A DNA stretch of 64,000 nt, from assembly GCA_030524635.1 (NCBI GenBank), contig JAUNGG010000004.1, positions 50,077 through 114,076 on the forward strand, in the 5' to 3' direction. Shown here piece after piece: positions 3,028-53,927 of this stretch (positions are counted from its first letter, which is position 1; the number at the start of each line of letters is the position of its first letter). The notes under the pieces are model-generated. The model saw only the letters and a list, made by a program, of their open reading frames with translations. It made no database searches and was not told where the DNA came from. The stretch is from Lachnospiraceae bacterium. GTDB lineage: Bacteria > Bacillota > Clostridia > Lachnospirales > Lachnospiraceae. Position numbers and translations under genes: made by a program.

Positions 3028-3330
3028 TTTAAAGCTCCTTTCATATGGTTCATTTTAATTATTTTTGAGTGCTTCTATATAACAAAGGCGCAGGCCTTTA
3101 GTTACTCGTGTAGATTTTGTAGAAAAAAATTATTGACGTATTTCCCGTCATGCTTCCCAATATATTTGTGCATAATATTCGTTATTTATCCAAATTTCGT
3201 CCACTGTTTGCACATATTTTTTCTACTTTGTTCATTTCTTTCACAATCTGTTATCGGTTTTATCTCTTTGCTTGGCTATATAATACCACATATTTTTACT
3301 CGTGTAAATAGTTTTTTTAAAAAATTTCCC

Positions 3331-4323: not shown

Positions 4324-4512
4324 TGTTCACACATCCCTCCCTTGAAAATTGTCGTAATACTGTAATTTTTCGCTTTGTGTTTATTTACTCGTGTTTCTTT
4401 CAGCTGCTACAATATTTACTATATAAGTATACTGAAAATATTTATTCGAGTCAATCTTTTTTCGTGATTCTGCTTTGCTTTATTGTTTCTCTTATGCACA
4501 TGCTCTAAAATT

Positions 4513-5730: not shown

Positions 5731-5777
5731 TTATTTGCACCTTCTTTTTCCAATCATAGCATATTTTATTCAGAAAT

Positions 5778-7109: not shown

Positions 7110-7218
7110 AAAAATACCTCCTTAACTTGAATACCTGTGGTGATGGTATCCATTATAAGGAGGCAAATGATTATAAACTTCTGAATTCTTGCCCTTTTCG
7201 CCTGAAATCATCCTTATT

Positions 7219-8061
7219 TTACCTGCGCTTAATCGGTACGCAGATATCCAGTTCCATATACATGGTATCGCAGTCCACCAGATGGTAGATATCAAACAGG
7301 CTCCTGCCAGCATCCATCTCATAAGACGTTTTCGGAAGCCAAACTAAAAATATGGTCTGATAGGCAGCATAAATATGCTTTGCATGGCCTTTAAAATGAT
7401 ACACGATGCATCTGCCGCCCTGTATCCTCACTATATTTTCCAGCGGGCAGCTCTTATCCACACTCATACCGATATCATACAGGCAGTTCTCAAGACAGGT
7501 CACTGCCGGATCATCGTAGGTTCGCTCCAAAAACTTCGTGTCCTCTGTGATGTATTCCCGATACCTTTCGATAAACCGATTCCAGTCTGCACTCATATTT
7601 TCATAGCTGCCAAACCGCCTTTCATAGATCACATGATAATCTGGAATCTCTTCAATGGTGATCTTCTCATCACATTCCTCAAAGCTTTCCACCTGCCACT
7701 GCTCGTGATGAAAAAAAGGATGCTCCATAGAATGCCGGCGGCTTCCCTTTCGGAATACAATGGGCGCCATCTGATAATGCTGTTTAAACGCCGAGCTGTA
7801 ATTCGATGAGCTGTAGCCGTAATCCGCGCTGATCTCTGTGATGGGCCGGCTCTGCTCCACTTTAAGGCGGAAAGCGCTCTGCTCAAGCTTCACCCGCTTA
7901 ATAAAGCCGTAGACGCTCTCACCTGTCTGCTCCTTAAAAAGACGGCTGAAATAATATTTTGAGAAATGGCAGTGGGACGCCACATCTTCCAGGGTCAATT
8001 CTTCTTCTATGTGCTGTAAGATAAAATCAATCGCTTGATTGATGGTCTCATTTGTGATCAT
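7219..8061 (-). CDS. AraC-family HTH regulator with a GyrI-like effector-binding domain
   Basis: N-terminal AraC-type HTH (HFSKYYFSRLFKEQTGES) plus a C-terminal GyrI-like fold. It lies next to the MATE pump, typical of drug-responsive regulators. Confidence 0.75.
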   Translation of the reverse strand: MITNETINQAIDFILQHIEEELTLEDVASHCHFSKYYFSRLFKEQTGESVYGFIKRVKLEQSAFRLKVEQSRPITEISADYGYSSSNYSSAFKQHYQMAPIVFRKGSRRHSMEHPFFHHEQWQVESFEECDEKITIEEIPDYHVIYERRFGSYENMSADWNRFIERYREYITEDTKFLERTYDDPAVTCLENCLYDIGMSVDKSCPLENIVRIQGGRCIVYHFKGHAKHIYAAYQTIFLVWLPKTSYEMDAGRSLFDIYHLVDCDTMYMELDICVPIKRR

Positions 8062-8250
8062 AATGTGCTGCCTCTGCCCTCCGAATGCATAATATCATCA
8101 TCGTTCATCCTGAATCTATTTTAGCACAAGCAATCGAATAACCATATGCCTTATTTGCACCTATTATCTGTAGAAAGCCGCACCCATTCGGCAAAAAATA
8201 ATTTCCATAATATGGAATTCAATTAATTTAATATTTTTTCAAAAAAACTA

Positions 8251-8279
8251 TTGACAATTCGCAAATTATTTAGTAGAAT
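8251..8279 (+). promoter_or_regulatory. Sigma-A-type promoter for the tRNA-Phe/tRNA-Gly pair
   Basis: TTGACA at 8251-8256, a 17 nt spacer, then TAGAAT at 8274-8279, about 30 nt upstream of tRNA-Phe. Confidence 0.5.
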
Positions 8280-8309
8280 ATCATCGTTGCTTCTGATGAA
8301 GCAGTCGAT

Positions 8310-8382
<73 letters not shown>

Positions 8383-8416
8383 CTGTATCACAAGATACAA
8401 TTTCATAATTTCCTAT

Positions 8417-8487
8417 GCGGGTGTAGTTCAATGGTAGAACACTAGCCTTCCAAGCTAGATACGTGGGTTCGATTCCCATCACCCGCT
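8417..8487 (+). tRNA. tRNA-Gly(UCC)
   Basis: Acceptor GCGGGTG/CACCCGC, anticodon loop CTTCCAA, T-arm GGGTTCGATTCCC. Confidence 0.85.
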
Positions 8488-8498
8488 TTTTTCATGCA

Positions 8499-8537
8499 AT
8501 GGAAAACCTGATGAAATAAAGGTTTTCCATTTTTTCA
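8499..8537 (+). terminator. Rho-independent terminator after the tRNA pair
   Basis: Stem ATGGAAAACC/GGTTTTCCAT followed by a T-run. Confidence 0.55.
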
Positions 8538-8657
8538 TTTTATCCGTAAATGGATATTTTTTCTATCCATTTACGGCGTTTTTATTTACTTTTATATCCT
8601 TTTATGGTAAAATTCAATCAACCTGCTCATCTCATTTCAATCGGAAAGAGGTTCTCA

Positions 8658-9488
8658 ATGAATCTAGAAAAATTAAAAAAGAGAAAAAAAGAATTAAAAA
8701 TTACCAACAAGGAACTTGCCGACCGCTCCGGAGTTCCTCTCAGCACGGTAAATAAGATTTTCAGCGGAGCTACGAAATCGCCCCAGTATCAGACGATCCT
8801 TGCATTGGAGACCGTTCTTGCCATGTATTCTTATTCCGATCAGGACGGCCCCTATGTAGGCGCTGTACATGAAGCTGCCGCCCTTTATCAGGTCAAGGGG
8901 AATCAAACGGCTGACGATTACTACGCTCTGCCGGATGAGGTTCGGGCCGAGCTGATCGACGGGCGGATTTACTACATGGCTGCCCCTACCAATGCCCACC
9001 AGGAGATTCTTGGGGAACTGTATTACCAGATCAAGGACTATATCCGCAAGCGCCAGGGAGCCTGCAAGGTTTTCCTGTCTCCCTTTGATGTCCGTCTGGA
9101 TCAGGATGATAAGACCATTGTCCAGCCGGATCTGATCATCACCTGCCATCCGGACCGTCTGGTATACCGCGGATTAAACGGTGCTCCGGATTTCGTCATC
9201 GAAATCATCTCTGTAAGCACCAGTAAGCGGGATTATTCTCTGAAAATGCAGAAATACTGGGATGCCGGCGTTCAGGAATACTGGATTGTGGACAGCTATA
9301 AACAGCATATCGTCACCTACCAGTTCCATGGTGAGGACGTGGATATGAAAATCCATGGAATTAACGATCTGGTAACCGTGCAGTTATACGGGGATTTCGT
9401 CATCGACTTCGGATCGTTTATGCCAGGTGTGCTGCAGGCGGAAGCAGAAGCAAAGGCAGCCGATTCACCGCCTGCAAAAATAACCTGA
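8658..9488 (+). CDS. XRE-type HTH fused to a Uma2-family (DUF820, PD-(D/E)xK) endonuclease-like domain
   Basis: Start at MNLEKLKKRKKELKITNKELADRSGVPLSTVNKIFSG (HTH) with an AAAGAGG RBS. The C-terminal PDFVIEIISVSTSKRDYSLKMQKYWDAGVQEYWIVD matches the Uma2 catalytic core. Confidence 0.65.
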   Translation: MNLEKLKKRKKELKITNKELADRSGVPLSTVNKIFSGATKSPQYQTILALETVLAMYSYSDQDGPYVGAVHEAAALYQVKGNQTADDYYALPDEVRAELIDGRIYYMAAPTNAHQEILGELYYQIKDYIRKRQGACKVFLSPFDVRLDQDDKTIVQPDLIITCHPDRLVYRGLNGAPDFVIEIISVSTSKRDYSLKMQKYWDAGVQEYWIVDSYKQHIVTYQFHGEDVDMKIHGINDLVTVQLYGDFVIDFGSFMPGVLQAEAEAKAADSPPAKIT

Positions 9489-9588
9489 TTCTAGAAACCG
9501 CTGGGCAAAACTATATTCTGAATGCTGTTCATTCATGCCCGATTCCGGTTACCATGCAGATCATATAAAAGGAAAGGCAGCTACCATC

Positions 9589-10944
9589 ATGGAAAAAAAG
9601 CAAACTGTAAGAGATTTAACCCAGGGCACACCCATTACACAAATCCTCCTCTTCTCCCTCCCCTTAGTATTCGGCACTTTGTTCCAGCAGCTTTACAGCT
9701 TTATGGATACTGTCATCGTAGGGCGCTGCATCGGGATGGACGCTCTGGGAGCATTGGGAACCACCTATTCCCTGAACTTTTTAACCCTCGGCTTCGTCCA
9801 GGGCTTCTGTGTGGGACTGGGAATTCCCATTTCCAAAAGCTTCGGCGCCAAGGACCCGCGGCAGCTCCACCGATATCTCTGGAACGGCCTGTGGCTGTGC
9901 ATCGGGATCAGCCTTCTGTTTTCCGTGGTCATGACTGCCGCCGCCATCCCGCTGCTGAAGCTGATGCACACGCCGGAAAGTCTTCTTGGCATGGCCGCAG
10001 ATTATATCCATATCATCTTTCTGGGGATTCCGGCTGCTGTTTTATATAATTTTTCCTCCAGCGCACTGCGGGCGGTAGGCGACTCCAAGCACCCTTTTTA
10101 CTTCCTGCTGTTTTCCAGTGTACTGAATATTCTTCTGGATTACCTGTTCATCGTACCCTTGCAGATGGGTGTGGCCGGAGCGGCGGCTGCCACTGTCATC
10201 AGCCAGCTGATCAGCGGCCTTTTAAACAGCTGGTGGCTGCTGACCCGAAATGAAGTGTACCAGATTAAAAAAGAGGAGCTTCCTTTTTCTGCCCCTCATG
10301 CATTCTATTTATGTAAAATTGCCATTCCTATGGGATTTGAATATTCCGTTTCTGCCATCGGCGCTATTGTGATGCAGAATGCCATCAATTCCCTGGGAAG
10401 CATTGCCGTTGCTGCACAGACCACCGGTGAAAAGATCCGACAGATGTTTACCCTTCCCATGGAAAGTGTGGGCATGGCCATGGCTACCTATGCAGGCCAG
10501 AACTACGGTGCAGGCGATATGGCCCGCATTAAAAAGGGAATCAAAAGCGGTCTGACCATTCAGTATCTCTACTGCATCGCCGTCTGGCTGATCATCCGCT
10601 TCACCAAAACCGCCCTGGTCCGCCTGGTAATCGGATCCGCTGTCGGGCCGGAGGCAGAAGGCGCCGTCCAGTATTTAAGCATTATGAGCGCCTTGTTCTT
10701 TATTCACGGCTCCCTGATGATCTTCCGCAATACCCTCCAGGGACTGGGACGCAGCCTCCAGGCCATTTTATCTGGTGTGGGAGAGCTGATCGGAAGAAGC
10801 CTGGGAGGCCTGATCGCTATCGCCCTGACCAGCTATACCGCCATCTGCTACACCAACCCTTTAGCCTGGGGTCTGGCCTTGATCTACTGCATGATCATGG
10901 TATTTCTGACACTGCAAAAAGAGTGTGCCAAGGACCGGCATTGA
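9589..10944 (+). CDS. MATE-family efflux transporter
   Basis: Start at MEKKQTVRDLTQGTPIT with an AAAGGAAAGG RBS. It is a 12-TM-like polytopic protein. Confidence 0.8.
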   Translation: MEKKQTVRDLTQGTPITQILLFSLPLVFGTLFQQLYSFMDTVIVGRCIGMDALGALGTTYSLNFLTLGFVQGFCVGLGIPISKSFGAKDPRQLHRYLWNGLWLCIGISLLFSVVMTAAAIPLLKLMHTPESLLGMAADYIHIIFLGIPAAVLYNFSSSALRAVGDSKHPFYFLLFSSVLNILLDYLFIVPLQMGVAGAAAATVISQLISGLLNSWWLLTRNEVYQIKKEELPFSAPHAFYLCKIAIPMGFEYSVSAIGAIVMQNAINSLGSIAVAAQTTGEKIRQMFTLPMESVGMAMATYAGQNYGAGDMARIKKGIKSGLTIQYLYCIAVWLIIRFTKTALVRLVIGSAVGPEAEGAVQYLSIMSALFFIHGSLMIFRNTLQGLGRSLQAILSGVGELIGRSLGGLIAIALTSYTAICYTNPLAWGLALIYCMIMVFLTLQKECAKDRH

Positions 10945-10973
10945 AGCCTGAAGGGTTTAACCAAACGTAATAA

Positions 10974-11019
10974 TGACCGCGGCTTAGGCAGATGAGAATC
11001 AGCTTAAGCCGCGGTCATA
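10974..11019. terminator. Bidirectional hairpin between convergent genes
   Basis: 17 bp near-perfect inverted repeat ATGACCGCGGCTTAGGC / GCTTAAGCCGCGGTCAT, between the MATE stop and the dctM stop. Confidence 0.45.
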
Positions 11020-11038
11020 AATCAATCCTGGATTAATC

Positions 11039-12340
11039 CTAAATCAATCCCATCAGGCTTGGAATTCCTAAAGACAGCGCCGGAATATAGGTCACGGCCA
11101 GCAGCAGCAGGAACAATACTGCAAAGTAGGGCAGCAGCGTCTTGGTTACTTCCTCGATACTGATCTTGCTGATACCGCAGCCTACGAACAGTACAGAACC
11201 AACCGGCGGGGTGATATTGCCCAGACACATGTTGAAGATCAGCATAACACCAAACTGAATATCTGTCATTCCCAGGCTCTGTGCGATGGGCAGGAAGATT
11301 GGGGTGAAGATCAGGATGGCCGGAGTGATATCCATAAACATACCAACTACCATCAAGATCACGTTCATCAGCAGCAGGATCACATACTTATTGGTAGAGA
11401 TCGCCATAATACCAGAGCTGATAGCTGCCGGGATTCCGGAATATGCCATAACGAAGGACATTGCGGAGGATGCAGAGATCAGGAACAGGATGATACCGCT
11501 GGTGCATGCGCTGTTTACCAGGATCTTCATAAAGGACTTCACCGTTAAGCTCTTGTAGCAGATGGACAGGATCAGGCAGTACAGCACACAGATGCCGGCT
11601 CCTTCTGTTGCGGTGAAGATGCCGCCTACGATACCGCCGATTACAATGATAATCAGCAGAAGGCTTGGCAGCGCCTCTAAGGTCACCTTAAGGCACTCAG
11701 AACCGCTTGGGATTCCGGTGGTTGGATATTTGTGCTTCTTTGCATAGAAGAATGCCACTACCATGGAGCCCACACCCATCAGGATGCCGGGAACATAGCC
11801 TGCCATAAACAGGGTGGAGATGGACACACCGCCTGCTACGGTAGAATACACAATGAATGCACTGGTAGGCGGAATCAGCAGTCCGGTTGGTGCAGAAGCA
11901 ATGTTGACTGCGGTTGCAAATGCAGGGTCATAGCCCTCATCCTTCTGGATCGGGTAGATACAGCCGCCCATAGCAGAGGCTGCCGCTACGGAAGAACCGG
12001 ACAGGGCGCCGAACAGCATGTTTCCTACGATATTGGCCTGAGCCAGGGAGCCTGGGATCCAGCCTACGAACAGTTTTGCAAAATTTACCAGACGTCTTGC
12101 AATACCGCCGTTGTTCATAATATTACCTGCCAGGATAAACAGCGGGATCGCCAGCAGCGAGAAGCTTTCCACACCACTGTTCATCTTCTGCATGGTGATG
12201 AAGGTGATCTGATCCCAGGACAGGGAGGAGATGGCAGTTACAATTGATGCGATTACGATGCTGACGGAGATCGGGCAGCTTAAAAACAGCAGGATGCCGA
12301 ATACCGCAAACAGGATAACGGTTGTTAATGCAATACTCAT
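11039..12340 (-). CDS. dctM: TRAP transporter large permease subunit
   Basis: 433 aa polytopic protein with typical DctM composition. Its start overlaps the dctQ stop. Confidence 0.85.
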   Translation of the reverse strand: MSIALTTVILFAVFGILLFLSCPISVSIVIASIVTAISSLSWDQITFITMQKMNSGVESFSLLAIPLFILAGNIMNNGGIARRLVNFAKLFVGWIPGSLAQANIVGNMLFGALSGSSVAAASAMGGCIYPIQKDEGYDPAFATAVNIASAPTGLLIPPTSAFIVYSTVAGGVSISTLFMAGYVPGILMGVGSMVVAFFYAKKHKYPTTGIPSGSECLKVTLEALPSLLLIIIVIGGIVGGIFTATEGAGICVLYCLILSICYKSLTVKSFMKILVNSACTSGIILFLISASSAMSFVMAYSGIPAAISSGIMAISTNKYVILLLMNVILMVVGMFMDITPAILIFTPIFLPIAQSLGMTDIQFGVMLIFNMCLGNITPPVGSVLFVGCGISKISIEEVTKTLLPYFAVLFLLLLAVTYIPALSLGIPSLMGLI

Positions 12341-12840
12341 TACTCATTCCCTCCTTCAATCTTAATTCCAGTGATATCCTCATACAGGTTGATGATCTGG
12401 GCCACGATGATAAACAGACCGGAGATCGGTGCCATAGAATACACCAGGCTTCTGGGGATTCCAAGCAGTGCGGAATATACCTTCTCTGCACTGGCTGCCA
12501 GCTTAAAGCCGCCGATGGTGATGACAAAGATGGCAAATACTAAAATCAATGCATCGATAAAGATCATTAAGATCCGATTTCCTGCCGGGCTTAAGCTGCT
12601 GCGGATCAGCACCAGGCACATATGCTCTCTGGTTACAAAGGCGTATGCAGCACCGATAAATCCGGTCCAGATCAGGAAGTAACGCACCAGCTCCTCAGTA
12701 AATGCAGCCGGGCTGTTTAAGACGTAACGGGTAAATACCTGGTATAATACCAGCAGAGTCATAACAGACAGCAGCACAGTAGCGATAGCTGCCAGAAGCT
12801 TGGTCATGCACTTTTTAATGACAGTTAATACTTCTTTCAT
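12340..12840 (-). CDS. dctQ: TRAP transporter small permease subunit
   Basis: 166 aa, 4-TM-like, lying between dctP and dctM. Confidence 0.75.
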   Translation of the reverse strand: MKEVLTVIKKCMTKLLAAIATVLLSVMTLLVLYQVFTRYVLNSPAAFTEELVRYFLIWTGFIGAAYAFVTREHMCLVLIRSSLSPAGNRILMIFIDALILVFAIFVITIGGFKLAASAEKVYSALLGIPRSLVYSMAPISGLFIIVAQIINLYEDITGIKIEGGNE

Positions 12841-12855
12841 CTCAGTACCTCCCCC

Positions 12856-13878
12856 TTATTCTACAGAATCAATGGTATCAAGCAGGGTCTTTACACCTGG
12901 ATACTGTTCACAGTAATCATCGATCATGCCGCTGGTAGCCTGGCGGAATGCTTCTTTATCTACATCATCCACGAATTCAACCCCCATCTGGGTCTTAGCC
13001 TCCTGGATTGCCTCTTCGATTGCGGCATCCCATGCGATCTTGTGGCTGTCGGTAGACTCATGTGCAGCCTCCAGAATGATCTGCTGATCCTCCGGGCTGA
13101 TCTGGTTCCAAACCTTGGCGCTCATTACCATAACATCCGGGATCATGGCATGCTGATCGGTGGAATACACCTTGCAGATCTCGCCGTGCTTACCGGTAGT
13201 CAAAGCGGTCTCATTGTTCTCCGTTCCATCGATAATACCAGTCTGCAGGGAGGTATATACATCACCATAGGACATAGCAACCGGGATACCGCCCAGAGCC
13301 TGCATCATATCAGTCTGAGACTTCATATCCTGTACACGGATCTTTAGTCCCTTTAAGTCTTCCGGAGTGCGGATCGCTTTATCCTTTGTATAGAAGGAAC
13401 GTGCACCGGAGGTGTAGTAGGTCAAGGTTACAAAGCCATCATCCTCAGAGGACAGGAAGAAGTCCTGCATCTGCTGGGAATCCATCACATGATAGAAGTC
13501 CTCTGTATCATCGAAAATGTAGGGAAGACCGAATCCGTGGTATGCTTCGTTATAGGTAGCAAGTCCAGGTGCAGAAACCTTGGTCATAGAGATAACACCT
13601 GCCATCAGCTGCTCCATGTTCTCATTTTCTGAGCCAAGCTGTCCATTTGGGAAGATCTGGATCTGGATTCTGCCGTTGGTCCGCTCATTTACCTTCTCGG
13701 CAAACTCCAGCATGGCGATATGCACCGTATGTACCTCACTCAGGCCGTGAGCCAGGGTAAGTACCATCGGATTTTCTGCCGTTGCTTCTGCACTGCTCTT
13801 TGCGCCCGTGGATGCGCAGCCAGTTAATGAAGTGGCTGCTAATACCAGGGCAAGCACGATTGCTGCAATCTTTCTCAT
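12856..13878 (-). CDS. dctP: TRAP transporter substrate-binding protein, lipoprotein
   Basis: Signal peptide with lipobox LTGCAS, 340 aa, DctP-family composition. It begins only 31 nt downstream of the GH31 stop. Confidence 0.8.
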   Translation of the reverse strand: MRKIAAIVLALVLAATSLTGCASTGAKSSAEATAENPMVLTLAHGLSEVHTVHIAMLEFAEKVNERTNGRIQIQIFPNGQLGSENENMEQLMAGVISMTKVSAPGLATYNEAYHGFGLPYIFDDTEDFYHVMDSQQMQDFFLSSEDDGFVTLTYYTSGARSFYTKDKAIRTPEDLKGLKIRVQDMKSQTDMMQALGGIPVAMSYGDVYTSLQTGIIDGTENNETALTTGKHGEICKVYSTDQHAMIPDVMVMSAKVWNQISPEDQQIILEAAHESTDSHKIAWDAAIEEAIQEAKTQMGVEFVDDVDKEAFRQATSGMIDDYCEQYPGVKTLLDTIDSVE

Positions 13879-13909
13879 CTTTTTTAACCCCTTTCTTTCT
13901 TCATTTTAT

Positions 13910-16411
13910 TTACATTCCGATCAGATCAAACTGCTCGAAGGATACTAGCACCTGATAATCCTTCTTCGGGTTCGGATACTTGATCTGAACAGATTTTAAT
14001 CTCTGGCTGTAGTACCAGCCGCACTCTGTCTCCTCAAACTTCCGTCTGTGCAGGAAATGGGGGATCTGTTTTCCGTCAACGGTCACCCAGTACGGAGATT
14101 TCTCTCTGTGGATCATATCCACATACATAGTCTCCACTGCCGTCTCATAGCTTCCCTCCTGCTTGAAATCCAGGTAGGTCCGCTCTCCAACCGTCATGGT
14201 GATGCGGGTCTTTAAATAATCACCCTTCTCATAATCCATGGAAACACCGTCATCCTCATATAAGTCAAACTGGTTGTCCTTGTCAGCCGCACACAGCAGA
14301 GTAATTCCCGTAGCCTGCTGGGTCTTTAAATTGTCCAGCTGATTGGATGCCATAGGGATCAGGGCGCCGCTTCTCACATACATTGGGATACTGCTCAAGG
14401 TCACCGGAACCTCAATGGTCTGTCCGCCTTCGTAAGCTTCTCTGGTATTCAGATCATAGAAGACTGCTCCCTCCGGCAGGTAGATGCTGCGGGTCTTTGC
14501 TCCCTTCTCCACCACATTTGCTACCAGCAGGGAATCACCGAACATAAAGTCCACGCCTTCCTCATAGCACTTCGGGTCGTTCTGGAATGCGCTGCACATC
14601 GGTTCCATAATCGGCAGTCCCTTCTCATGGGCACGCTCCGTCAGGGAGTACAGGTAGGGGCTTAACTGATACCGGAATTCAATGGCATGACGGATATCAT
14701 CCTTTAAGTCGCTGTACATCCAGGGCTCCGTTACGGTGTTGTCCGTATTGGTGGAGTGGATGGAGAATCTTGGCTGGAAGATACCATTCTGTACCCAGCG
14801 CAGGAACAGCTCACCCTCCGGCGCCGGACCGTAAAAGCCGCCGATGTCGCAGCCCTGATTGGCCACGCCGGACAATCCCATGCCTAAGATCGTTGCAATG
14901 TTATACTTTAATGCTTCCCAGCAGGTTAAGTTGTCCCCTGCCCAGGTCTGTGCGTACCGCTGGATACCGCAGTGGCCGGAACGGCACACAATATACGGAC
15001 GAGTATTGTCAAAGGTCTCATGAATGGCTTCATCGGTGATATGGCACATGATGTTGGACATTACAGACTTTAACTGGCCGATGGTACCGCCCTTGCCCTC
15101 GAAATAGCAGCGGCAGTCCTTGTCTACCATGCTGTCATACTCACAGTTATCATTCCAGATGGAGCAGGTTCCGTAGTCCAGAACATTTTCCTTTAACATC
15201 GCCTTCCAGTTCTCGCGGGTTTCTTTCTTGGTGTAGTCCACAAACACGCCTTTGCCGCCCCACCAGGTTCCTACCCCCGGCTCCTCGCTGTCGCTGGCCT
15301 TTACAAACATGTCCTTCTCCTTCATCTCCTCTAACATGGGATGGATCAGAAGGATGCCTGGCTTAACATTGGGGGTCACCGTCACGCCCCGGTCTGCCAT
15401 CTGCTTGAAGAAATCAGCAGGATCCTTAAACCGCTTCTTATTCCAGGTGAAGACGCAGCGCTTCACGCCCTTGTCCGTCTCTACCGTGCAGTAGCCGGAG
15501 GAAAGCTGGAAGCCGTCTACCGGGATCTTCTCTTCCTTGGTGGTATCAATAAACTCTACGATGGCATCATCACAGTCTGCCTCCAGCTCCGGATAGTACA
15601 TGGAAGAGCCAAGGTAGCCCAGTGCGTACCGGGGCAGCAGAGCAGATTTTCCGGTCAGGTCGGTGTAGCGCTCCACTACCTGGCGCACCGTCGGGCCTGC
15701 GATCAGGAACAGATCGATGTCGCCTCCGTCTGCACGATAGCGGCTGTGCATCTTCCAGTAGTTGCTCTTTTCCCGTCCCATGTCGAAGTCGCACTCGTAA
15801 GTATTGTGATAGAAATAGCCAACCGCCTTTTTGCTTCCCTTATTCAGCTTGATGTAGAATGGAATATGCTTATATAAGGAATCCGTCTCTTTCGGGTTGT
15901 AGCCCATGGCATCCTTGGGGCTCATTCCCATAAACTTCTGCGCCTTGTTGAATTCGCCGCTCTTCTCGCCAAAGCCATAGAAGCAGTCATCCGGAGTGAT
16001 CTCGCTGGTATGAATGCGGCGGTGGTTGCTGTCTTCCATATATGCCAGATCCACGATATCTGCATGAAGCAGCGTGCCCTCTGCATCATACACACAGATG
16101 CGGAATGGATCCTTCTCTACCACTACCTTAAGCTGCTTTCCCTGAATCACAGCCTTTTCTTCCCCGTCTTCCAGCACCGCCTCTGCAGCCGTCACCCGCT
16201 TCCGGTAATTCTTCAAAAACTCGTCCATCCTGTCTTCCCATGCAGTCATTACCAGGCTGTAGGATTCCTCCGCAAAATCCCCGTCAAAGCCGGCGCGAAT
16301 CCTGACGATCGAATCCGTTAAAAATAAGATACGGATCTCCACGCTGTTCGTCATGACAGAAAAGTAATTGTCCTGCTGCTTTACTGACAGAGCCGTTGTA
16401 CAAATTTTCAT
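13910..16411 (-). CDS. Glycoside hydrolase family 31 (alpha-glucosidase / alpha-xylosidase / sulfoquinovosidase-type)
   Basis: 833 aa with GH31 catalytic-region motifs (WNDNCE, GIQRYAQTWAGDN) and a GAGGAGG RBS. Confidence 0.85.
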   Translation of the reverse strand: MKICTTALSVKQQDNYFSVMTNSVEIRILFLTDSIVRIRAGFDGDFAEESYSLVMTAWEDRMDEFLKNYRKRVTAAEAVLEDGEEKAVIQGKQLKVVVEKDPFRICVYDAEGTLLHADIVDLAYMEDSNHRRIHTSEITPDDCFYGFGEKSGEFNKAQKFMGMSPKDAMGYNPKETDSLYKHIPFYIKLNKGSKKAVGYFYHNTYECDFDMGREKSNYWKMHSRYRADGGDIDLFLIAGPTVRQVVERYTDLTGKSALLPRYALGYLGSSMYYPELEADCDDAIVEFIDTTKEEKIPVDGFQLSSGYCTVETDKGVKRCVFTWNKKRFKDPADFFKQMADRGVTVTPNVKPGILLIHPMLEEMKEKDMFVKASDSEEPGVGTWWGGKGVFVDYTKKETRENWKAMLKENVLDYGTCSIWNDNCEYDSMVDKDCRCYFEGKGGTIGQLKSVMSNIMCHITDEAIHETFDNTRPYIVCRSGHCGIQRYAQTWAGDNLTCWEALKYNIATILGMGLSGVANQGCDIGGFYGPAPEGELFLRWVQNGIFQPRFSIHSTNTDNTVTEPWMYSDLKDDIRHAIEFRYQLSPYLYSLTERAHEKGLPIMEPMCSAFQNDPKCYEEGVDFMFGDSLLVANVVEKGAKTRSIYLPEGAVFYDLNTREAYEGGQTIEVPVTLSSIPMYVRSGALIPMASNQLDNLKTQQATGITLLCAADKDNQFDLYEDDGVSMDYEKGDYLKTRITMTVGERTYLDFKQEGSYETAVETMYVDMIHREKSPYWVTVDGKQIPHFLHRRKFEETECGWYYSQRLKSVQIKYPNPKKDYQVLVSFEQFDLIGM

Positions 16412-16706: not shown

Positions 16707-17546
16707 ATGCTGGATCAGGCAGGAATTATGATGGCCCAGGGCAGTCAGATCGCCTGTGAGCGGATCAGCGGGGTAAATGACAATATGTTTCAATCCCACT
16801 ATCACAATTATTATGAACTGTATTTTTTAGAAGACGGAGAACGATATCAGAGAATACAGGATGAGCTGTATCTGTTAAAGCCCGGCGAGCTGATGCTGTT
16901 TTCCCCTTATATCATGCACTTTTCCTACGGAGCTGAAAATGTGCCCTTTAAACGGATCATCCTGTATTTCCACAAGGATGAGGTGGATACTCCAGAGCTG
17001 ATCGAAGCCCTGGACACTGCAAACGGTATGTATAAGCCCCCTCAAAAGGACCGGCGAACCATCCATCAGCTTTTAGAGCTTTTGCTCCACGAACAGAACA
17101 ATCCCGGCGATTTTCACAGCAATTACCAGCACATGCTGTTAAACCTGCTTCTCTACCAATTAGCCCGCCAGAAACGGACTCAGGCTCTGGCAAAGCCGGA
17201 GGAAAGCACCCGCATCAGCCAGGTGATCCGCTATATCCACACCCATTATGCAGATGATATTAATCTGGAAAGTCTCTCCCAGATGTTTTATGTCAGCCCT
17301 TATTATCTGTGCCGGGAATTTAAAGAATATACCAACAGCACCATCATCCAGTATGTGAATGTAACACGGATCATGAATGCTCAAAGAAAATTTATGGAAA
17401 CAAATCTGAATATCACAGAGATCAGCAAAGCTACCGGGTTCTCAAATCTGACCCATTTTAATCGGGTATTTAAGTCTGTGACGGGAATGACGCCTTCCGG
17501 GTATCGGAAGACGCACAAGAATCAGCAGTTTTATGTGGGAGGGTGA
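16707..17546 (+). CDS. AraC-family regulator with a cupin-type sensor domain plus HTH
   Basis: C-terminal AraC HTH (YYLCREFKEYTNSTIIQYVNVTRIMNAQRKF). It is divergent from the GH31/TRAP operon and has an AAAGGGGGA RBS. Confidence 0.8.
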   Translation: MLDQAGIMMAQGSQIACERISGVNDNMFQSHYHNYYELYFLEDGERYQRIQDELYLLKPGELMLFSPYIMHFSYGAENVPFKRIILYFHKDEVDTPELIEALDTANGMYKPPQKDRRTIHQLLELLLHEQNNPGDFHSNYQHMLLNLLLYQLARQKRTQALAKPEESTRISQVIRYIHTHYADDINLESLSQMFYVSPYYLCREFKEYTNSTIIQYVNVTRIMNAQRKFMETNLNITEISKATGFSNLTHFNRVFKSVTGMTPSGYRKTHKNQQFYVGG

Positions 17547-22473: not shown

Positions 22474-22989
22474 ATGGAATTTGAAAAAAATAATAAAAAG
22501 CTGAGGCATTCTCTGTTTGAGATATCTGAAATTTTTTATCGTTTCAGTTGGGGAAATGTTGAACATACAAAGTTCCTTCGAAATTATGGCACAGGAGAAT
22601 CCTATTCAGCGATTGAAATACATTTATTGATTCGAATTGCACAGAATCCGGGTATTTCTGTTACAGATCTTGCTCAGCGAAACGGACGAACAAAGGGTGC
22701 TGTATCACAAATTATAACAAAGCTGGAGCTGAAAGAACTGATCCGCCGGGAAAAACGTCAGGAAAATGCGCACTTCGTATCCCTGTACGCTACTCCTAAG
22801 GGCCTAGAGGTCAGCAAGGCTTTTCAGCAGCATCAGGAACAGCTTATAGGCCCCATTGTAGATGACCTTGTGGCGTTGATAGGTGCTGACAATGCTGATA
22901 AATTTTATGATTTTTTGGATCATTACAATAATGTAGTCTATCCCGGCATTGTGGCTCAGATTCAAGATGAGCTGAAAGGGAAAAAATAA
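22474..22989 (+). CDS. MarR-family transcriptional regulator
   Basis: Start at MEFEKNNKK with an AAAGGGG RBS. Winged-helix region ISVTDLAQRNGRTKGAVSQIITKLELKELI. Confidence 0.8.
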   Translation: MEFEKNNKKLRHSLFEISEIFYRFSWGNVEHTKFLRNYGTGESYSAIEIHLLIRIAQNPGISVTDLAQRNGRTKGAVSQIITKLELKELIRREKRQENAHFVSLYATPKGLEVSKAFQQHQEQLIGPIVDDLVALIGADNADKFYDFLDHYNNVVYPGIVAQIQDELKGKK

Positions 22990-23004: not shown

Positions 23005-23060
23005 TGAAAAAAGGCTGATGCTCTCTCATACATAATTGCGGAGAACATCAGCCTTTGCTG
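23005..23060. terminator. Bidirectional terminator between convergent MarR and permease genes
   Basis: 15 bp stem AAGGCTGATGCTCTC / GAGAACATCAGCCTT flanked by A- and T-rich runs. Confidence 0.5.
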
Positions 23061-23087: not shown

Positions 23088-24383
23088 TCAATACAGTGGG
23101 AAAAGGATACACGCCGAGATAATTCCACAAGCGGACACGATAATGCTGGGACCAATAGATTGGCGGAAAATACTCTTGAAATCATAGCCGCCTGCTGTCA
23201 TGGCCGCCGTCATAGGAGGACATGCCATAGGAGTCATGAAAGCAGTGGTGCAAGCTGTGTACAGAAGCACAAGGGGACCCACCGGATTCAGTGCCATAAC
23301 CTTACAGGATGACAGGATAACCGGAGCAAATGAGTAGAGAACAGCGGCATTCATCATGAACTGTGTGAGGATAAAGGGCAGCAGGAAGAAAACCAGGTAG
23401 ACGATAAATGTACTCTGACCCGAACCAATCACATCGGCCACTATCTGACCAATTAAATCTGCAGCGCCTGTATTGGAGAGTGCACCGCCCATGGCCAAAG
23501 CACCTGTGAATATGCAGTAGAAGGAAAGCGGAAACGCATTCAATGCTTGTTTGCCGGAAAGCACCCCGGTAAAGACCATCAGGGCTGCGCCCACAACGCA
23601 GGCAATGTAGCCATCGTAAAGACCTGTGACAGCAGCAATTATGAGGGCAACGCAGGTCCCAAAAAAGATTACATAGCCACAAATTTCCTGGAATACGGGC
23701 AGCTTTTCCGCCTCACCACCGGTGCTGCTTTCCGCAACTGTAATGGAACTTGACGGCTCATCAGGCGAAATTCTGAGGCCAACAAATACAGAGTAGATAA
23801 CCGTAAGAATCACTCCAGCCAGCCTCACCAGCATGAGGTCAAACAATTCGGCTTTATAACCTGTGATAGAAAAGGATTCTATCATGCCGTTAAAAAAGGA
23901 GATATTCGCAAGACCCGGGCCGATGGGAATCCATCCCATGCCGACAATGCATACGGTGACCAGCGGATACATAACTTTGGAACGGCGAACGCCAAGCTGA
24001 TCTGCGGCGATGCCCAGTAGCGGAGCAACGATAGAGAATTCTGCGATTCCCCAACCGATAAACTGGTCAAGTATGAGCACCAGCATGGCGTAACCAAAGA
24101 AAACCTTACGGATAGACCCTTTTGCTGCGCGGTTGATTGCGGACGTTAAATTATGTATCATCTGTGTCCGAGTCAGACCAGCAGAGAGGATAAACATGCA
24201 GACAACAATAATGGCATTGCTGTTTCCGAAATAGCTGACGGCATTTTCCGCTGAGATACAATTCGTCAGACGAAACAGTGCAACTCCAAGCATAGCAACC
24301 GCACCCATTGAAACCTTGCCTGAAATGTATCCGGTGATCATAAGTATACAGATGGCCAAACAAGCAATCATTTCACTATTCAT
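23088..24383 (-). CDS. Anion permease of the ArsB/NhaD/CitMHS superfamily (putative di/tricarboxylate transporter)
   Basis: 431 aa polytopic protein starting at MNSEMIACL with a GGAGGAA RBS. It overlaps the upstream gene stop by 8 nt. Confidence 0.6.
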   Translation of the reverse strand: MNSEMIACLAICILMITGYISGKVSMGAVAMLGVALFRLTNCISAENAVSYFGNSNAIIVVCMFILSAGLTRTQMIHNLTSAINRAAKGSIRKVFFGYAMLVLILDQFIGWGIAEFSIVAPLLGIAADQLGVRRSKVMYPLVTVCIVGMGWIPIGPGLANISFFNGMIESFSITGYKAELFDLMLVRLAGVILTVIYSVFVGLRISPDEPSSSITVAESSTGGEAEKLPVFQEICGYVIFFGTCVALIIAAVTGLYDGYIACVVGAALMVFTGVLSGKQALNAFPLSFYCIFTGALAMGGALSNTGAADLIGQIVADVIGSGQSTFIVYLVFFLLPFILTQFMMNAAVLYSFAPVILSSCKVMALNPVGPLVLLYTACTTAFMTPMACPPMTAAMTAGGYDFKSIFRQSIGPSIIVSACGIISACILFPLY

Positions 24384-25200
24384 AATTTCCTCCGGTATTG
24401 TTGGATTGTTCGATTTCCCTGTAGGTAATACGATAGTCAGAGGGCAGCGGAGGTTCTCCGTATAAACGTCCACACTGGATAGGATACAGATTGGCACCTG
24501 TTTCCTGTGTGATTTTAATTGCCTTTGCTACTTCAAACAGGTAATCTGCCGGAAATACAAGGCTTATCTCGTGGTCACCAGTGTAGGCAAAAGCCCGTTC
24601 GCCGCCTGCCATCACATTCATTACTGGCTTCTGATGAATCAGAGACCAGACCATGGAGGAACATCCAATGCTTCCCAGGAATTGTCCAGAAACAGGAATG
24701 CCCTGCCAGGTAAAGCATTTGCACAGCATACTGATCTGGCCAGGATTACCATAAACAACAATCAGGTCAGGTCTCATGCGCAGATCCTCCAGGGGAGAAA
24801 ACACCAGCCCCTTGATATCCTTCAGATAAGTATCACGTTCCTTTACGATTCCCTCTAAAACCTGACGGGCCTCCTGATCCCGAAAGTGCCGTATATCAAT
24901 GCCTACAGGAAATTTGTCTGTCAAGCCGAATACAGAGGCGGCCGGCATACAGAAATGATCCTCCAGAGTGGAAACTACGGTTTTGCCAACTGTGCGGGCA
25001 TAATGTGTCATCTGACACAGCGGCAGATGCTGCTGCATGTCTCGCAGAGGACGGACTACATTTTCCGGAATTTCATCATCGCTTTCCAAAAAGGTAAGAG
25101 CAACAAGCCGATACAAATGGGCGTTATCTTTTATTGTTTTACCAGCTTCCATATAGGCTTGCAGCTCCCCGGAGCTTAACTGTTTGGATTTCTTTGTCAT
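24376..25200 (-). CDS. Hypothetical protein (274 aa), possibly DUF169-like
   Basis: Start at MTKKSKQLSSGELQAY with an AAGGAGG RBS. No motif recognised. It is co-operonic with the hydratase/lyase genes. Confidence 0.5.
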   Translation of the reverse strand: MTKKSKQLSSGELQAYMEAGKTIKDNAHLYRLVALTFLESDDEIPENVVRPLRDMQQHLPLCQMTHYARTVGKTVVSTLEDHFCMPAASVFGLTDKFPVGIDIRHFRDQEARQVLEGIVKERDTYLKDIKGLVFSPLEDLRMRPDLIVVYGNPGQISMLCKCFTWQGIPVSGQFLGSIGCSSMVWSLIHQKPVMNVMAGGERAFAYTGDHEISLVFPADYLFEVAKAIKITQETGANLYPIQCGRLYGEPPLPSDYRITYREIEQSNNTGGNYE

Positions 25201-25219
25201 TTTAAATACCTCCTTTGCC

Positions 25220-25735
25220 TTATTTCTGTGCGTCAGCGCCTTTTTTGGCAAGGTAAGGCATCATTCCGCCGCTCTGCATCACCTCAAGGATAAACGCAGA
25301 TGGTGCAAGTCCCTGATATTCTTCTCCCTTTGTCAGATTCTTCACACTGCCCTCCGCAAAATTAACCTCCAGTAAATCACTCATGTTCACCTTATCCAAA
25401 ATCCCAGGGCATTCCACAAAGGCAATACCTTCACTTTTAAGATTGTTGAACATCTGTGTTGAAAAGCTTTCAGCTACAATACAACGGATTCCGATGGTTT
25501 TTACAGCAATCAAAAAGGAAGAATGCACCTTGCCATAACCGAAATTTCTGCCACAGACCAGGATGTCGTCTGCCTTCGCAAGACCGGCAATAGCCGGCTC
25601 CACAGTCTGCATAAATTTTGCAGCAATTTCCTGGGGCGGAAGTGCGTCCATACCGATGTACCAGCCCATGGCGGTATCTGCATTTACGTGATTGCCTGGT
25701 GCTACAAGAGCGTTGCCTTTATAAATGTTTTCCAT
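25220..25735 (-). CDS. LeuD-like small subunit of an aconitase-family hydro-lyase
   Basis: 171 aa starting at MENIYKGNALV with a GGGAGGG RBS. LeuD-like motifs (VCGRNFGYGKVHS, IRCIVAESFS). It starts 1 nt after the large-subunit stop. Confidence 0.75.
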   Translation of the reverse strand: MENIYKGNALVAPGNHVNADTAMGWYIGMDALPPQEIAAKFMQTVEPAIAGLAKADDILVCGRNFGYGKVHSSFLIAVKTIGIRCIVAESFSTQMFNNLKSEGIAFVECPGILDKVNMSDLLEVNFAEGSVKNLTKGEEYQGLAPSAFILEVMQSGGMMPYLAKKGADAQK

Positions 25736-25736
25736 A

Positions 25737-27017
25737 TTAGCCCTCCCTATAATATGTTTCTGGTGATGTGATATAACCAGTGATGGCGGATGCAGCAATA
25801 GTAGCAGCACTGGCCAGATAAATAAATGCCTCATGGCTTCCGGAGCGTCCGGGAACATTCAATGTCTGCTGAGAAAGGCTTACTTCCCCAGGATTTAAGG
25901 GGCCGACGCCTCCAAAACAAACATCACAGGTCGGAGCAATCACTATAGCTCCTGCGTCAGCCAACGTGGACAAGAGACCTTCCCTTGCAGCTTGGCTGTA
26001 TACATATTGTGTTACAGGAGAAACAATGAAGCGAACCCCCTCTTTAATTTGGTGTCCTTTCAGGATATTGGCTGCAATACGCAAATCGCTTAGGGAACCA
26101 CCGATACAGGTTCCTATGATACACTGATCAATGGCTACATTTTTTAATTCTGAGGCAGGGCATGAAGTAAATACCTCAGGAGGATAAGTAACCATAGGAA
26201 CAATATCCTCAGCGCAGAAATGCAGAACTCTACTATACTGTGCGTCAGAGTCGCCGGAAATTTCTTCTGCTTCGATGCCGAAGTTTTCCTTATACCAGGT
26301 GCAGGTTTTCGCATCCGATTTAATCAAAGCGGTATCGGCTCCTACGTAGGAAATCTCGCCACACAGAATCATGCGCTGATCAATGTCCATTGCTTCGATG
26401 GCACTTCCGTCAAACTCAACTACAGCGCCGATTGCACCGTCCGGCCCCAATTCATTTTGTACAGCGAACCATACATCCTTGGCGGAAATATATGGCTTCA
26501 GCTGGCCGTCAATAACTACCCTGATCGTTTCCGGAACACACAAGGTAATTTCATCAAATGCCATTGCTTCTACTACATGACCGCCAAACCGGCCGCCGTT
26601 GGTATAGAATGCGCCTACACCGCCGGCATTGGAGGCCTGAGGATCAAAGTGCACGAACACCTTACCGGGCATAATGTCCCCCTGCTCAACATTGACAACA
26701 TGTCCTATGCCTTCACGGCAGTAGCAAGTAGCTCCAATATCTTTGGCCCGCTTGTGCTCGTCCTTGAAAAAACGAATGCTGTCGGCATTTACTGGAGGAG
26801 AGTTGTGGTCTTCATTGTAAATATATTTGTTACCATTAGATATTTTTTTGCCGGAAATCTTTTCTGCAGCATCCATATACATACCCAGAACACTCACACC
26901 CTTAAAGGAATAAAAGATAGGGCCTGTAAAATCTTTTACAGTGATGTATTCGCCAGGTGTTACCGAAGGCTTTCCCGCTGCTTTGGCCAGAATTTTTTCA
27001 CATAATGTCTGTTTCAT
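25737..27017 (-). CDS. LeuC-like large subunit of an aconitase-family hydro-lyase
   Basis: 426 aa with LeuC-type Fe-S ligand regions (IDQCIIGTCIGGS, APTCDVCFGG). Confidence 0.8.
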   Translation of the reverse strand: MKQTLCEKILAKAAGKPSVTPGEYITVKDFTGPIFYSFKGVSVLGMYMDAAEKISGKKISNGNKYIYNEDHNSPPVNADSIRFFKDEHKRAKDIGATCYCREGIGHVVNVEQGDIMPGKVFVHFDPQASNAGGVGAFYTNGGRFGGHVVEAMAFDEITLCVPETIRVVIDGQLKPYISAKDVWFAVQNELGPDGAIGAVVEFDGSAIEAMDIDQRMILCGEISYVGADTALIKSDAKTCTWYKENFGIEAEEISGDSDAQYSRVLHFCAEDIVPMVTYPPEVFTSCPASELKNVAIDQCIIGTCIGGSLSDLRIAANILKGHQIKEGVRFIVSPVTQYVYSQAAREGLLSTLADAGAIVIAPTCDVCFGGVGPLNPGEVSLSQQTLNVPGRSGSHEAFIYLASAATIAASAITGYITSPETYYREG

Positions 27018-27031
27018 GTCAGTCTCCTTTC

Positions 27032-27904
27032 CTATTTTGAATTATCAGCAGATGATGCCATATATTTCATTACCCGTTCCGTATACCCTGTGAAGGGGAT
27101 GCATTTGTCGAATTCTTCCTCATTGAAATTGAGTTTTCCGAGCTGCTTGATATCTCCGGTTTCCATAAGAATTTGTGCCGCCTCTCTACAACCTTCAAAT
27201 GCAGCGTAAAGCATCATTGGCCAATAAAGGACAAAGCTGGCTCCCGATTTCTTCTCATCTGCAAATGAACCGTTGGCATTCAGAATGATGAGAGGGCCGT
27301 TTATGCGCTTTTTCTGCTCAGCTGCCTCCTCTCCGGTGAGCCGCCAGCATAAAAGTACAGCGTCTGCGCCGGCCTCCAGGTATCGGTTGGCACGATAAAC
27401 AGCATCATCAATATCTCCGGTAGCCCAAGGTGTATCTGAACGTCCGATAATTAGGAAATTCGGATCTGTTCGGGCATCTACAGCCGCCCGGATTCTGCTG
27501 CAGACAGTATCCACATCTGTTATGATGGGTTTAAGAGAAGTATGTTTGCCAAAAGCATGATCTTCAATATGAATAGCTGAAACGCCGGCCTGTTCAAACT
27601 CCTGAACGGTTCTGCAGATATTAGCGGCTTCAAAAAACCCAGCCTCTACGTCACAAATCAAAGGGATATTTGTTGCATTGGCAATATTCCGCGCGTGATT
27701 GGCCATTTCAGTTAAGGTTACATTGCCGGTATCCGGCAGCCCCAATATGCTTGCAGCAGTAGCAAAACTTCCAAGGTAAATCGCCTTAAAGCCAGCTGCC
27801 TCAGACACACGGGCACTGACTGCATCATACACGCCCGGAACAGGATATGTTTCGCCTGATAATAACATTTCTTTCAAAAGAATTCTTTTTTCACTTGCTG
27901 TCAT
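27032..27904 (-). CDS. Isocitrate lyase / PEP mutase superfamily lyase (2-methylisocitrate lyase / 2,3-dimethylmalate lyase-like)
   Basis: 290 aa with a TIM-barrel ICL/PEPM-type sequence (GVYDAVSARV ... IEDHAFGK ... GRSD). First gene of the operon, with an AAAGGAAA RBS. Confidence 0.8.
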   Translation of the reverse strand: MTASEKRILLKEMLLSGETYPVPGVYDAVSARVSEAAGFKAIYLGSFATAASILGLPDTGNVTLTEMANHARNIANATNIPLICDVEAGFFEAANICRTVQEFEQAGVSAIHIEDHAFGKHTSLKPIITDVDTVCSRIRAAVDARTDPNFLIIGRSDTPWATGDIDDAVYRANRYLEAGADAVLLCWRLTGEEAAEQKKRINGPLIILNANGSFADEKKSGASFVLYWPMMLYAAFEGCREAAQILMETGDIKQLGKLNFNEEEFDKCIPFTGYTERVMKYMASSADNSK

Positions 27905-28306
27905 TTTTGCACATTTCCTTTCTGATTATTTTTTGCTATACTATACATCTTGCATTTAATTTAGTTTCGAAACTAAATTAAATATATCACATTTGCTGTA
28001 TTTGTCAATAGCCTTTTTTAAAAAATTGTTAATTCTGAATTATTCATGGCGATTTATCGCATTCGTTCTAGGTGTATGTATGGGAATTATGCCTATTGGG
28101 GTTAATTAAACAAGAATTATGGGACATTCACTCTCCCTTTTGCCCAAAAATCACCCCATTTTTTCTCTTCTTTGCCTAACAGGAAAACCGCCCGGTTTTT
28201 TCTAAATTATGGTATAATTGAAATATATGGCCCAGATCACATTCAGCCATTTGGCAGTGCGGGCACAAGATTATGATGAATCAATCAGGAGGCAAGGGAA
28301 TCAGTT

Positions 28307-53462: not shown

Positions 53463-53463
53463 A

Positions 53464-53925: not shown

Positions 53926-53927
53926 CT

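Follow-up and report, generated by a model that had tools for sequence, protein, structure and literature searches.

Herein we report the analysis of a 64-kb stretch of a Lachnospiraceae contig (JAUNGG010000004.1), hereafter the window, whose positions are used for all operon coordinates below, and in particular of an operon of five genes in which an aconitase-type pair of subunits stands next to a protein with the PEP-mutase/isocitrate-lyase (ICL) fold. The five open reading frames (ORFs) all lie on the minus strand, exactly where the initial annotation had put them (Table 1). The families that it had assigned also proved right by Pfam, namely the PEP-mutase/ICL fold, a LeuC-like and a LeuD-like protein and an anion permease, and the gene that it had left as hypothetical resolves to DUF169. 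In the following the first protein is called the PEPM-like protein, and the next two are called the LeuC-like and the LeuD-like subunit or, taken together, the LeuCD-like pair.

Gene order, promoter and candidate operator

A Shine-Dalgarno sequence is present at each of the five genes, and the junctions between them measure, in order, 14 nt, 1 nt and 19 nt, followed by an 8-nt overlap; of the two tight spacings noticed before, that of 1 nt is retained while that of 8 nt turned out to be an overlap rather than a gap. One promoter and one terminator thus enclose five genes that are translationally coupled, and the operon is therefore a self-contained unit. The promoter reads TTGACA-16-TGnGATATATT (28008..27981), and the same architecture is seen in three relatives of 85% identity (loci L023-L025). 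For the terminator hairpin the RNA fold amounts to -26 kcal/mol, with z = -6.96 against shuffled sequences.

Table 1. Genes and signals of the operon and its convergent regulator gene, in window positions
Feature	Position	Strand	Remarks
PEPM-like protein (PEP-mutase/isocitrate-lyase-fold Mg2+ enzyme)	27032..27904	-	290 aa; Cys-less 'EDHxFGKH(T/A)' clade
LeuC-like protein (aconitase-family large subunit)	25737..27017	-	426 aa; three [4Fe-4S] cysteines retained, substrate site remodelled
LeuD-like protein (aconitase-family small, swivel-domain subunit)	25220..25735	-	171 aa; GKVH instead of catalytic GSSRE
DUF169 protein, divergent	24376..25200	-	274 aa; family-conserved cysteines C62, C84, C180
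CitMHS/ion-transporter-superfamily anion permease	23088..24383	-	431 aa; start overlaps the DUF169 stop by 8 nt
MarR-family regulator	22474..22989	+	171 aa from ATG 22474 (184 aa from 22435); Pfam MarR/MarR_2
Sigma-70-type promoter TTGACA-16 nt-(TG)TGATATATT, extended -10	27981..28008	-	11/12 matches, TG present
Perfect 30-bp palindrome, ATTTAATTTAGTTTC followed by GAAACTAAATTAAAT, candidate MarR operator	27954..27983	.	abuts the -10 element
Intrinsic terminator, long GC-rich hairpin then U6	23007..23053	-	between the permease and MarR stops

The MarR gene is convergent with the operon, with 98 nt between its stop and that of the permease, and its product scores 43.2 against a Pfam MarR threshold of 24.6. 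A MarR gene also adjoins the trio of PEPM-like, LeuC-like and LeuD-like genes in L023-L025, where it is again convergent, and in L027/L028, where it lies upstream on the same strand, and the linkage is therewith retained across three gene arrangements. MarR is the likely regulator of the operon, as had been proposed, and it probably binds the palindrome, a candidate operator of the kind that the initial annotation had proposed to look for upstream of 27904. The palindrome consists of two arms of 15 nt that are 100% complementary and have no spacer; its core is single-copy in the window, where 0.01 matches are expected by chance, and in L023-L025 it occupies the same place behind the -10 element and carries two changes, while the flanking intergenic DNA differs. 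Searching the core across the window gave no copy upstream of marR or anywhere else, and therefore autoregulation via the same site is not supported. In general, control by MarR or TetR with an operator over the promoter is typical for substrate-induced catabolism or detoxification.

Active sites of the LeuCD-like pair and the PEPM-like protein

The LeuC-like subunit passes the Pfam model Aconitase (200.2 bits, cut-off 28.7) and has its best match in the PDB in LeuC of M. jannaschii (4kp1, 213.6 bits), and the best solved match of the LeuD-like subunit is LeuD of the same species (3vba, 111 bits). For the comparison of active sites the residues are numbered as in mitochondrial aconitase and were mapped by pairwise HMMER alignments to the M. 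jannaschii proteins together with textbook motif correspondence. With LeuCD and HacAB (4kp2/2pkp) of M. jannaschii the pair has in common the two-subunit architecture, the cluster cysteines C358, C421 and C424 (IGTCIGG and PTCDVCFG against IGSCTNG and PSCSACMG of 4kp1), which are invariant in 10 relatives, and moreover the acid-base residues D100/H101 (EDH), H147 (GIGH) and D165 as well as R452. In contrast, the large subunit has DPQ for DSH (S166P, H167Q), G..Y for the N258/E262 segment (E262Y/F) and TLNVPGR for NRNFRGR (N446T, R447L), while in the small subunit GYGKVHSS aligns with GCGSSREH of 3vba, with Lys, Val and His replacing the catalytic base Ser642, Ser643 and the substrate-binding Arg644 (S642K, S643V, R644H). 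All the substitutions of the large subunit recur without exception in ten large subunits taken from different loci, as do new motifs such as the loop YTNGGR and SQQTLNxPGRSGS, and in the small subunit GK(V/T/A/G)H and the substrate loop DTAMGWYLGMD are conserved in 54 protein clusters.

The family models tell the same pair apart. The LeuD-like subunit fails both Pfam Aconitase_C (21.1, cut-off 22.8) and TIGR02087, the LeuD/DmdB subfamily model (88.5, cut-off 108.95), and the pair fails all NCBIfam subfamily and equivalog models (NF001614, TIGR01343, TIGR02086, TIGR02083 and TIGR02084), for example with 314.8 against 385 and 87.5 against 245.85. A profile search of 5.8 billion protein clusters gave 54 clusters of the LeuD-like type and 25 canonical matches with GSSR; full-length members of the former reach 220-305 bits on the subfamily profile, whereas canonical GSSRE LeuD proteins reach at most 124 bits, a precomputed Pfam match is absent from the 54 clusters save for one 142-aa fragment, and Pfam Aconitase_C is passed by no member of the subfamily. 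Scans with the exact motif patterns of the LeuD-like subunit, over 185,579 species genomes and over JGI metagenomes, found four family loci each. From the invariant substitutions and the score gap it follows that the pair is rare, sharply delimited and under purifying selection; judged by its conservation it represents no leuCD in decay but a functioning enzyme whose active site differs.

The relatives of these proteins carry the public names '3-isopropylmalate dehydratase small subunit' and 'methylisocitrate lyase', which would make the locus an ordinary biosynthetic leuC/leuD beside a methylisocitrate lyase. Such a reading is refuted by the motif and score tests and retains a negligible probability: the scores to the leucine and PrpB equivalogs are a third to half of the cut-offs, the catalytic residues are replaced, no leuA or leuB lies near the operon, no second leuCD or leuA homologue was found in the window, and the operon contains a permease and has a MarR regulator. 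The earlier opinion that these are not biosynthetic leuCD genes is thus upheld, the pair standing outside the canonical isopropylmalate isomerases, and the names 'isopropylmalate dehydratase' and 'methylisocitrate lyase' are almost certainly wrong for these relatives.

Turning to the PEPM-like protein, it passes Pfam PEP_mutase (162.1 bits, cut-off 31.5), a family with a swapped-helix TIM barrel, and stays below every NCBIfam equivalog cut-off, at about a third to a half, as with prpB (TIGR02317, 158.9 against 354.4; NF008455, 141 against 353) and carboxy-PEP mutase (TIGR02319, 125.6 against 420.05), the last of which sets it outside the carboxyvinyl-carboxyphosphonate mutases. Neither of the two outcomes that the initial annotation had named as refuting its view, a pair firmly among the isopropylmalate isomerases or a lyase within this mutase clade, was observed. 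Its AF2 model (pLDDT 94.6) gives TM-scores of 0.85-0.88 to methylisocitrate lyases, PEP mutases, the 'carboxy-PEP mutase' 4iqd and oxaloacetate acetylhydrolase, and lower ones to dimethylmalate lyase (DML, 0.81) and PA4872 (0.74-0.75); for the lyase group formed by PrpB (3eoo, 1mum), ICL, DML, petal death protein and oxaloacetate acetylhydrolase the fold as a whole agrees at TM 0.86-0.88. The identity to the solved superfamily branches is 23-30% throughout, and the protein is thus no closer to any one characterised branch than to the others.

In the C-C lyase branch the gating-loop cysteine is the general acid, and so it is in dimethylmalate lyase (structure 3fa3). For the role of this cysteine see also PMC7609661. 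With the PrpB-type lyases the PEPM-like protein has in common the acidic metal residues, the gating-loop Lys and the Arg of (A/G)R(T/S)D, but it has KHT(S)L for K(K/R)CGH, and the second Mg-site Asp is a Glu (DxE). More specifically, its gating loop is IEDHAFGKHTSLKP where the alignment shows IEDQVGAKRCGHRP in solved methylisocitrate lyases, that is, EDHAFGKHTSL against EDQVGAKRCGH, and as GKHTSL aligns with AKRCGH in 1o5q, 1mum and 3eoo, the position of the catalytic Cys is taken by Thr and the C-C lyase signature K(K/R)CGH is lacking. Among the best 120 homologues the loop ED(x)nGK(H/R) occurs in all, and KxCGH or the PEP-mutase motif EDKX5NS in 0; the Thr is replaced by Ala in many members, and the metal-site acids D58, D85, E114 and D115 are invariant in 51 clade members. 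The loop being common to all these homologues, the PEPM-like protein therefore represents a large clade of its own.

A catalytic gating-loop cysteine is also absent from the oxaloacetate decarboxylase PA4872 (3b8i), PEP mutase (1pym, 5unc) and phosphonopyruvate hydrolase (2dua), which stabilise a Mg2+-bound enolpyruvate or oxo-acid, and the K-x-(N/T)-S of the PEPM-like loop resembles PEP mutase (PepM) and phosphonopyruvate hydrolase. However, the scores to these members (97.6, 110 and 88.6 bits) are no higher than to the lyases. The one likeness seen to PA4872 is the absent lyase Cys, and its 97.6 bits are lower than the score to methylisocitrate lyase (MICL). One clade member (P0119) bears the NCBI name 'oxaloacetate decarboxylase'; it is no closer to PA4872 than to MICL, and the name has no evidential value.

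Gene neighbourhoods in other genomes

The context of the LeuCD-like pair was compared over about 13 independent loci. The PEPM-like gene adjoins the pair in the window, in L023-L025 (85% identity), in L026-L028 (67%), in Fusibacter bizertensis (L002), in a Myxococcota metagenome-assembled genome (MAG; L007) and in L015, L017 and L019; several metagenome contigs are among the places where the trio recurs. Since it recurs with MarR in both the 85% and the 67% relatives, the linkage is not due to chance. In the former the convergent MarR comes right after the trio and both DUF169 and the permease are lacking, while in the latter all five genes are present with MarR upstream. Therefore the core consists of the trio and MarR, and DUF169 and permease form an accessory pair that is gained or lost together. 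In the literature nothing was found on this gene combination.

As for the accessory pair, the DUF169 assignment (PF02596) is clear, with 113.7 bits against a cut-off of 27, but the protein is divergent: it is about 30% identical to typical members, an exhaustive HMMER search yields 3 representatives at E<=1e-30, and a word-indexed homologue search returned only itself and one fragment. A literature search found no functional study of DUF169. The permease passes Pfam CitMHS (96.6 bits, cut-off 31.9), matches Na_sulph_symp weakly and stays below the TIGR00785 DASS cut-off (76.9, cut-off 198.6); a dedicated permease, as already noticed before, points to uptake. In the Myxococcota MAG (L007:8882-9640, with an MFS gene next) and in L017:8390-9049 the PEPM-like gene is succeeded by one for an unannotated protein of about 220-252 aa. 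The two are 34% identical and have the same operon position as DUF169 in the window; the 252-aa protein was considered as a DUF169 relative, but BLAST finds no similarity, and it appears to be a different, two-repeat alpha+beta protein.

In four other loci (Paenibacillus pectinilyticus L011, L013, L014/L018 and the P0130 locus) the neighbour of the pair is instead a DRE-TIM protein of 412-416 aa that resembles isopropylmalate synthase (IPMS) or homocitrate synthase and lies far below the family cut-offs, and in two of these four an HpaI-like aldolase is present as well. The PEPM-like and the IPMS-like gene are mutually exclusive beside the LeuCD-like pair, the one exception being L013, where a PEPM fragment lies on the far side of an IS element. 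The PEPM-like, IPMS-like and HpaI-like partners are all metal-dependent TIM-barrels that polarise a 2-oxo acid, and therefore the substrate or product of the pair is probably a 2-oxo or 2-hydroxy acid. The L013 locus itself (2096-11520) is degraded or rearranged: it holds a PEPM fragment of 124 aa, a DDE transposase, a histidine kinase whose response regulator is split and the LeuC-like gene in two ORFs, and continues with the LeuD-like gene, the HpaI-like aldolase, DinB_2, the IPMS-like protein and an MBL-fold protein.

Other common neighbours elsewhere, all absent from the operon, are DinB_2, LPG_synthase_C-like proteins, a conserved 70-aa protein and LuxR-type or TetR regulators. The LPG_synthase_C family is directly beside the pair in Fusibacter, Anaerovoracaceae, L015 and the P0130 locus. 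The 70-aa protein (MSFNEKSTLKQINANDQAKAVLNKYLPGIWEDSK...) follows the LeuD-like or the PEPM-like gene in two unrelated loci (L002:10701-10913 and L015:5806-6018) and has no Pfam or NCBIfam match.

The mutual exclusion of the PEPM-like and IPMS-like genes would suit a biosynthetic module, in which the PEPM-like or IPMS-like protein builds a 2-substituted malate-type acid, the pair isomerises or dehydrates it (for example to an alkylmaleate-type product) and the permease exports it. In fact the order in Paenibacillus L011, namely IPMS-like, LeuC-like, LeuD-like and SDR, is that of a 2-oxo-acid chain-elongation module, and the LPG_synthase_C-like, DinB_2 and small-protein neighbours resemble tailoring more than catabolic genes. 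Yet neither the window operon nor its 85% relatives contain tailoring genes, the PEPM/ICL fold favours cleavage, and the Cys-less form has no obvious route to the acid carbanion needed for condensation. Moreover the PEPM-like protein is met with importers (TRAP DctPQM, MFS) in unrelated contexts, and the MarR/TetR control described above also speaks against a module of this kind, which we consider rather unlikely.

The same neighbourhood recalls phosphonate metabolism, where PepM, an HMGL-like synthase and an aconitase make up the known phosphonomethylmalate logic (PMC8942020), with PepM, the homocitrate-synthase-like FrbC and the aconitase FrbA. By this account, modelled on the FR-900098 and phosphinothricin pathways, the PEPM-like protein would be a relative of PEP mutase or phosphonopyruvate hydrolase and the pair an isomerase of the phosphonomethylmalate type. 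In K-x-(N/T)-S the loop EDHAFGKHTSL is indeed nearer to the PepM loop (EDKRFPKVNSF, 5unc) than to the lyase loop, and a phosphonate could be bound by the Lys and His that stand in the pair for Ser and Arg. However, EDHAFGKHTS fails the PEP-mutase (Ppm)-specific motif EDKX5NS (PMC8942020), having EDH...TS instead with Ala for Thr in much of the clade, and the scores are 116.9 against 319.55 for PEP_mutase (TIGR02320) and 98.1 against 374.4 for phosphonopyruvate hydrolase (TIGR02321). As the PEPM-fold and HMGL-like proteins are here alternatives rather than partners, and no other phosphonate genes, downstream or elsewhere, are seen in any locus, this account is highly improbable.

A third account is close to that of the initial annotation, which had likened the operon to the DmdAB and Dml steps of nicotinate fermentation: the pair would hydrate a cis-unsaturated branched di-acid of the dimethylmaleate, citraconate or maleate type, and the PEPM-like protein would act as a 2-alkylmalate lyase to give pyruvate and a short acid. 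With E. barkeri DmdAB and Dml the operon has in common the three protein families, similar sizes and no linkage to leucine genes, and perhaps also the scheme in which water is added or removed before a C-C bond is cleaved; the similar sizes, taken before as a match, are generic for both families and not diagnostic. The gene content and order fit a hydratase, a lyase and a permease, among solved structures methylisocitrate lyase and the subunits of the M. jannaschii isopropylmalate/citramalate isomerase come nearest, and the IPMS-like substitute makes the same 2-alkylmalate C-C bond that such a lyase would break. The DinB_2 superfamily, which includes thiol-dependent maleylpyruvate cis-trans isomerases, is represented among the neighbours elsewhere, with a weak MDMPI_N match. 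On the other hand, the Cys of every characterised superfamily lyase is Thr here and Ala in many clade members, the catalytic Ser of the hydratase and its carboxylate-binding Arg residues are replaced (S166, H167, E262 and R447 being lost and GKVH standing for GSSRE), the LeuD-like subunit is under the LeuD/DmdB cut-off, and none of the nicotinate-fermentation genes (ndh, hnr, ena, hgd, hmd, mgm, mii) adjoins the operon, as had been noticed before. Hence the sequence of import, water chemistry and a C-C step remains reasonable, but the equivalence to DmdAB and Dml, from which the operon was set apart via family models and motifs, fails on the catalytic residues of both enzymes, and the alkylmaleate route as such appears doubtful.

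The PEPM-like protein also occurs solo with an MFS transporter and a regulator. Altogether importers adjoin it in four different settings (CitMHS, MFS three times, and TRAP), and therefore the catabolism of an imported compound is favoured. Its closest member outside the LeuCD-like context (L004:3239-9798, also L005 and L006; 56% identity) sits in a DctP-M20 peptidase-DctQ-DctM operon and is followed by a second PEPM-fold paralogue with a KKCGH loop; as the two types stand side by side, they are not interchangeable or redundant. The L004-type operon is possibly a separate catabolic pathway using both enzyme types.

Possible function and surroundings of the operon

To explain these observations we tentatively favour, with a probability of roughly 0.4, an operon under MarR repression that would serve to degrade or detoxify a small organic anion taken up from outside, and that is built on a functional subfamily of the aconitase superfamily not described before. 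Uptake of the anion would be an optional addition, provided by DUF169 and the CitMHS permease. The LeuCD-like pair would add or remove water, or isomerise, next to a carboxylate on its [4Fe-4S] cluster, with the serine alkoxide superseded as base by the invariant Lys of GKVH, and its substrate would carry a distal group other than the carboxylate or alkyl found in citrate, isopropylmalate or homocitrate. The PEPM-like protein would then bind the resulting 2-oxo or 2-hydroxy acid via Mg2+ and cleave it, where a cleavage of the beta-keto-acid type (decarboxylation or hydrolysis), known from the Cys-less branches of its superfamily, seems more likely than a Cys-dependent retro-Claisen reaction and would leave a pyruvate-type product. 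MarR would occupy the 30-bp palindrome over the -10/+1 region and be released by the substrate or an intermediate.

Several points weigh against this catabolic or detoxifying function. Neither subfamily has a characterised member, and so the substrate, the direction and the chemistry are deduced from sequence; the lysine as base, in particular, is a guess from its position alone. The IPMS-like alternative partner is normally biosynthetic and would fit a biosynthetic LeuCD-like pair, and the DinB_2, LPG_synthase_C-like, 70-aa and LuxR-type neighbours elsewhere are not explained by simple catabolism. Besides, the PEPM-like protein could be a lyase that takes its proton from elsewhere, for instance from the invariant His of GKH or EDH, and the permease could work in export.

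In textbooks the aconitase superfamily exemplifies a conserved catalytic constellation, and the roles of the residues replaced here, in substrate binding and deprotonation, belong to established aconitase enzymology. To our knowledge AcnX is the only known departure from this constellation, and it led to new chemistry. The conserved set comprises about 23 residues, with a serine as base and three Cys ligands (PMC5144071). The LeuCD-like pair would be a second, rare subfamily that keeps the cluster and swaps the base and the substrate-binding arginines, and it travels with a PEPM/ICL-fold partner without the hallmark lyase cysteine. As both the base and the carboxylate-binding arginines are replaced, the pair would therefore act on a substrate class unhandled by the known members. 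It may, though at somewhat less than even odds, constitute a new class of the superfamily, with a Lys base, Leu and His for the arginines and a novel substrate class, which co-evolved with a Cys-less PEPM-like protein of new cleavage. If this is true, the substrate, for example a diol, an amino-hydroxy or another non-tricarboxylate acid, would be converted to a 2-oxo acid in an undescribed pathway of organic-acid degradation or detoxification, sporadic in Clostridia, Paenibacillus and Myxococcota. Since the operon is small, stands by itself and is under the control of MarR with a clean operator, its substrate should be findable by ligand and substrate screening of the repressor and the two enzymes.

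In the window, the operon is flanked by dapA, dpaAB, GH36, PTS EIIA, SPFH and RtcB genes, which are unrelated to it; dpaAB, SpoIIE and YabQ are present, and the host is a spore-forming Lachnospiraceae MAG. A standalone LPG_synthase_C (DUF2156) ORF of 329 aa at 62409-63398 on the minus strand, next to a GNAT/SCP2 protein and a Sir2 deacetylase, was considered as a partner of the operon and judged unrelated, being 35 kb away. About 26 kb from the operon, at 48595-57275 on the minus strand, lies a GntR/UTRA-regulated cluster with a molybdopterin subunit of the xanthine-dehydrogenase family (751 aa, 53928-56183) and a FAD-binding subunit (52620-53462), together with a fusion of a MobA-like NTP transferase to a histidine phosphatase and two 'Gate' membrane proteins for nucleoside recognition. 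The xanthine-dehydrogenase family includes nicotinate dehydrogenase, but no other nicotinate-fermentation genes were seen. Finally, a TRAP system and a glycoside hydrolase are combined in an unusual way at 11039-16411, where the genes DctM (11039-12340) and DctP (12856-13878) have as neighbours one for a GH31 glycosidase (13910-16411) and one for an AraC regulator (16707-17546).

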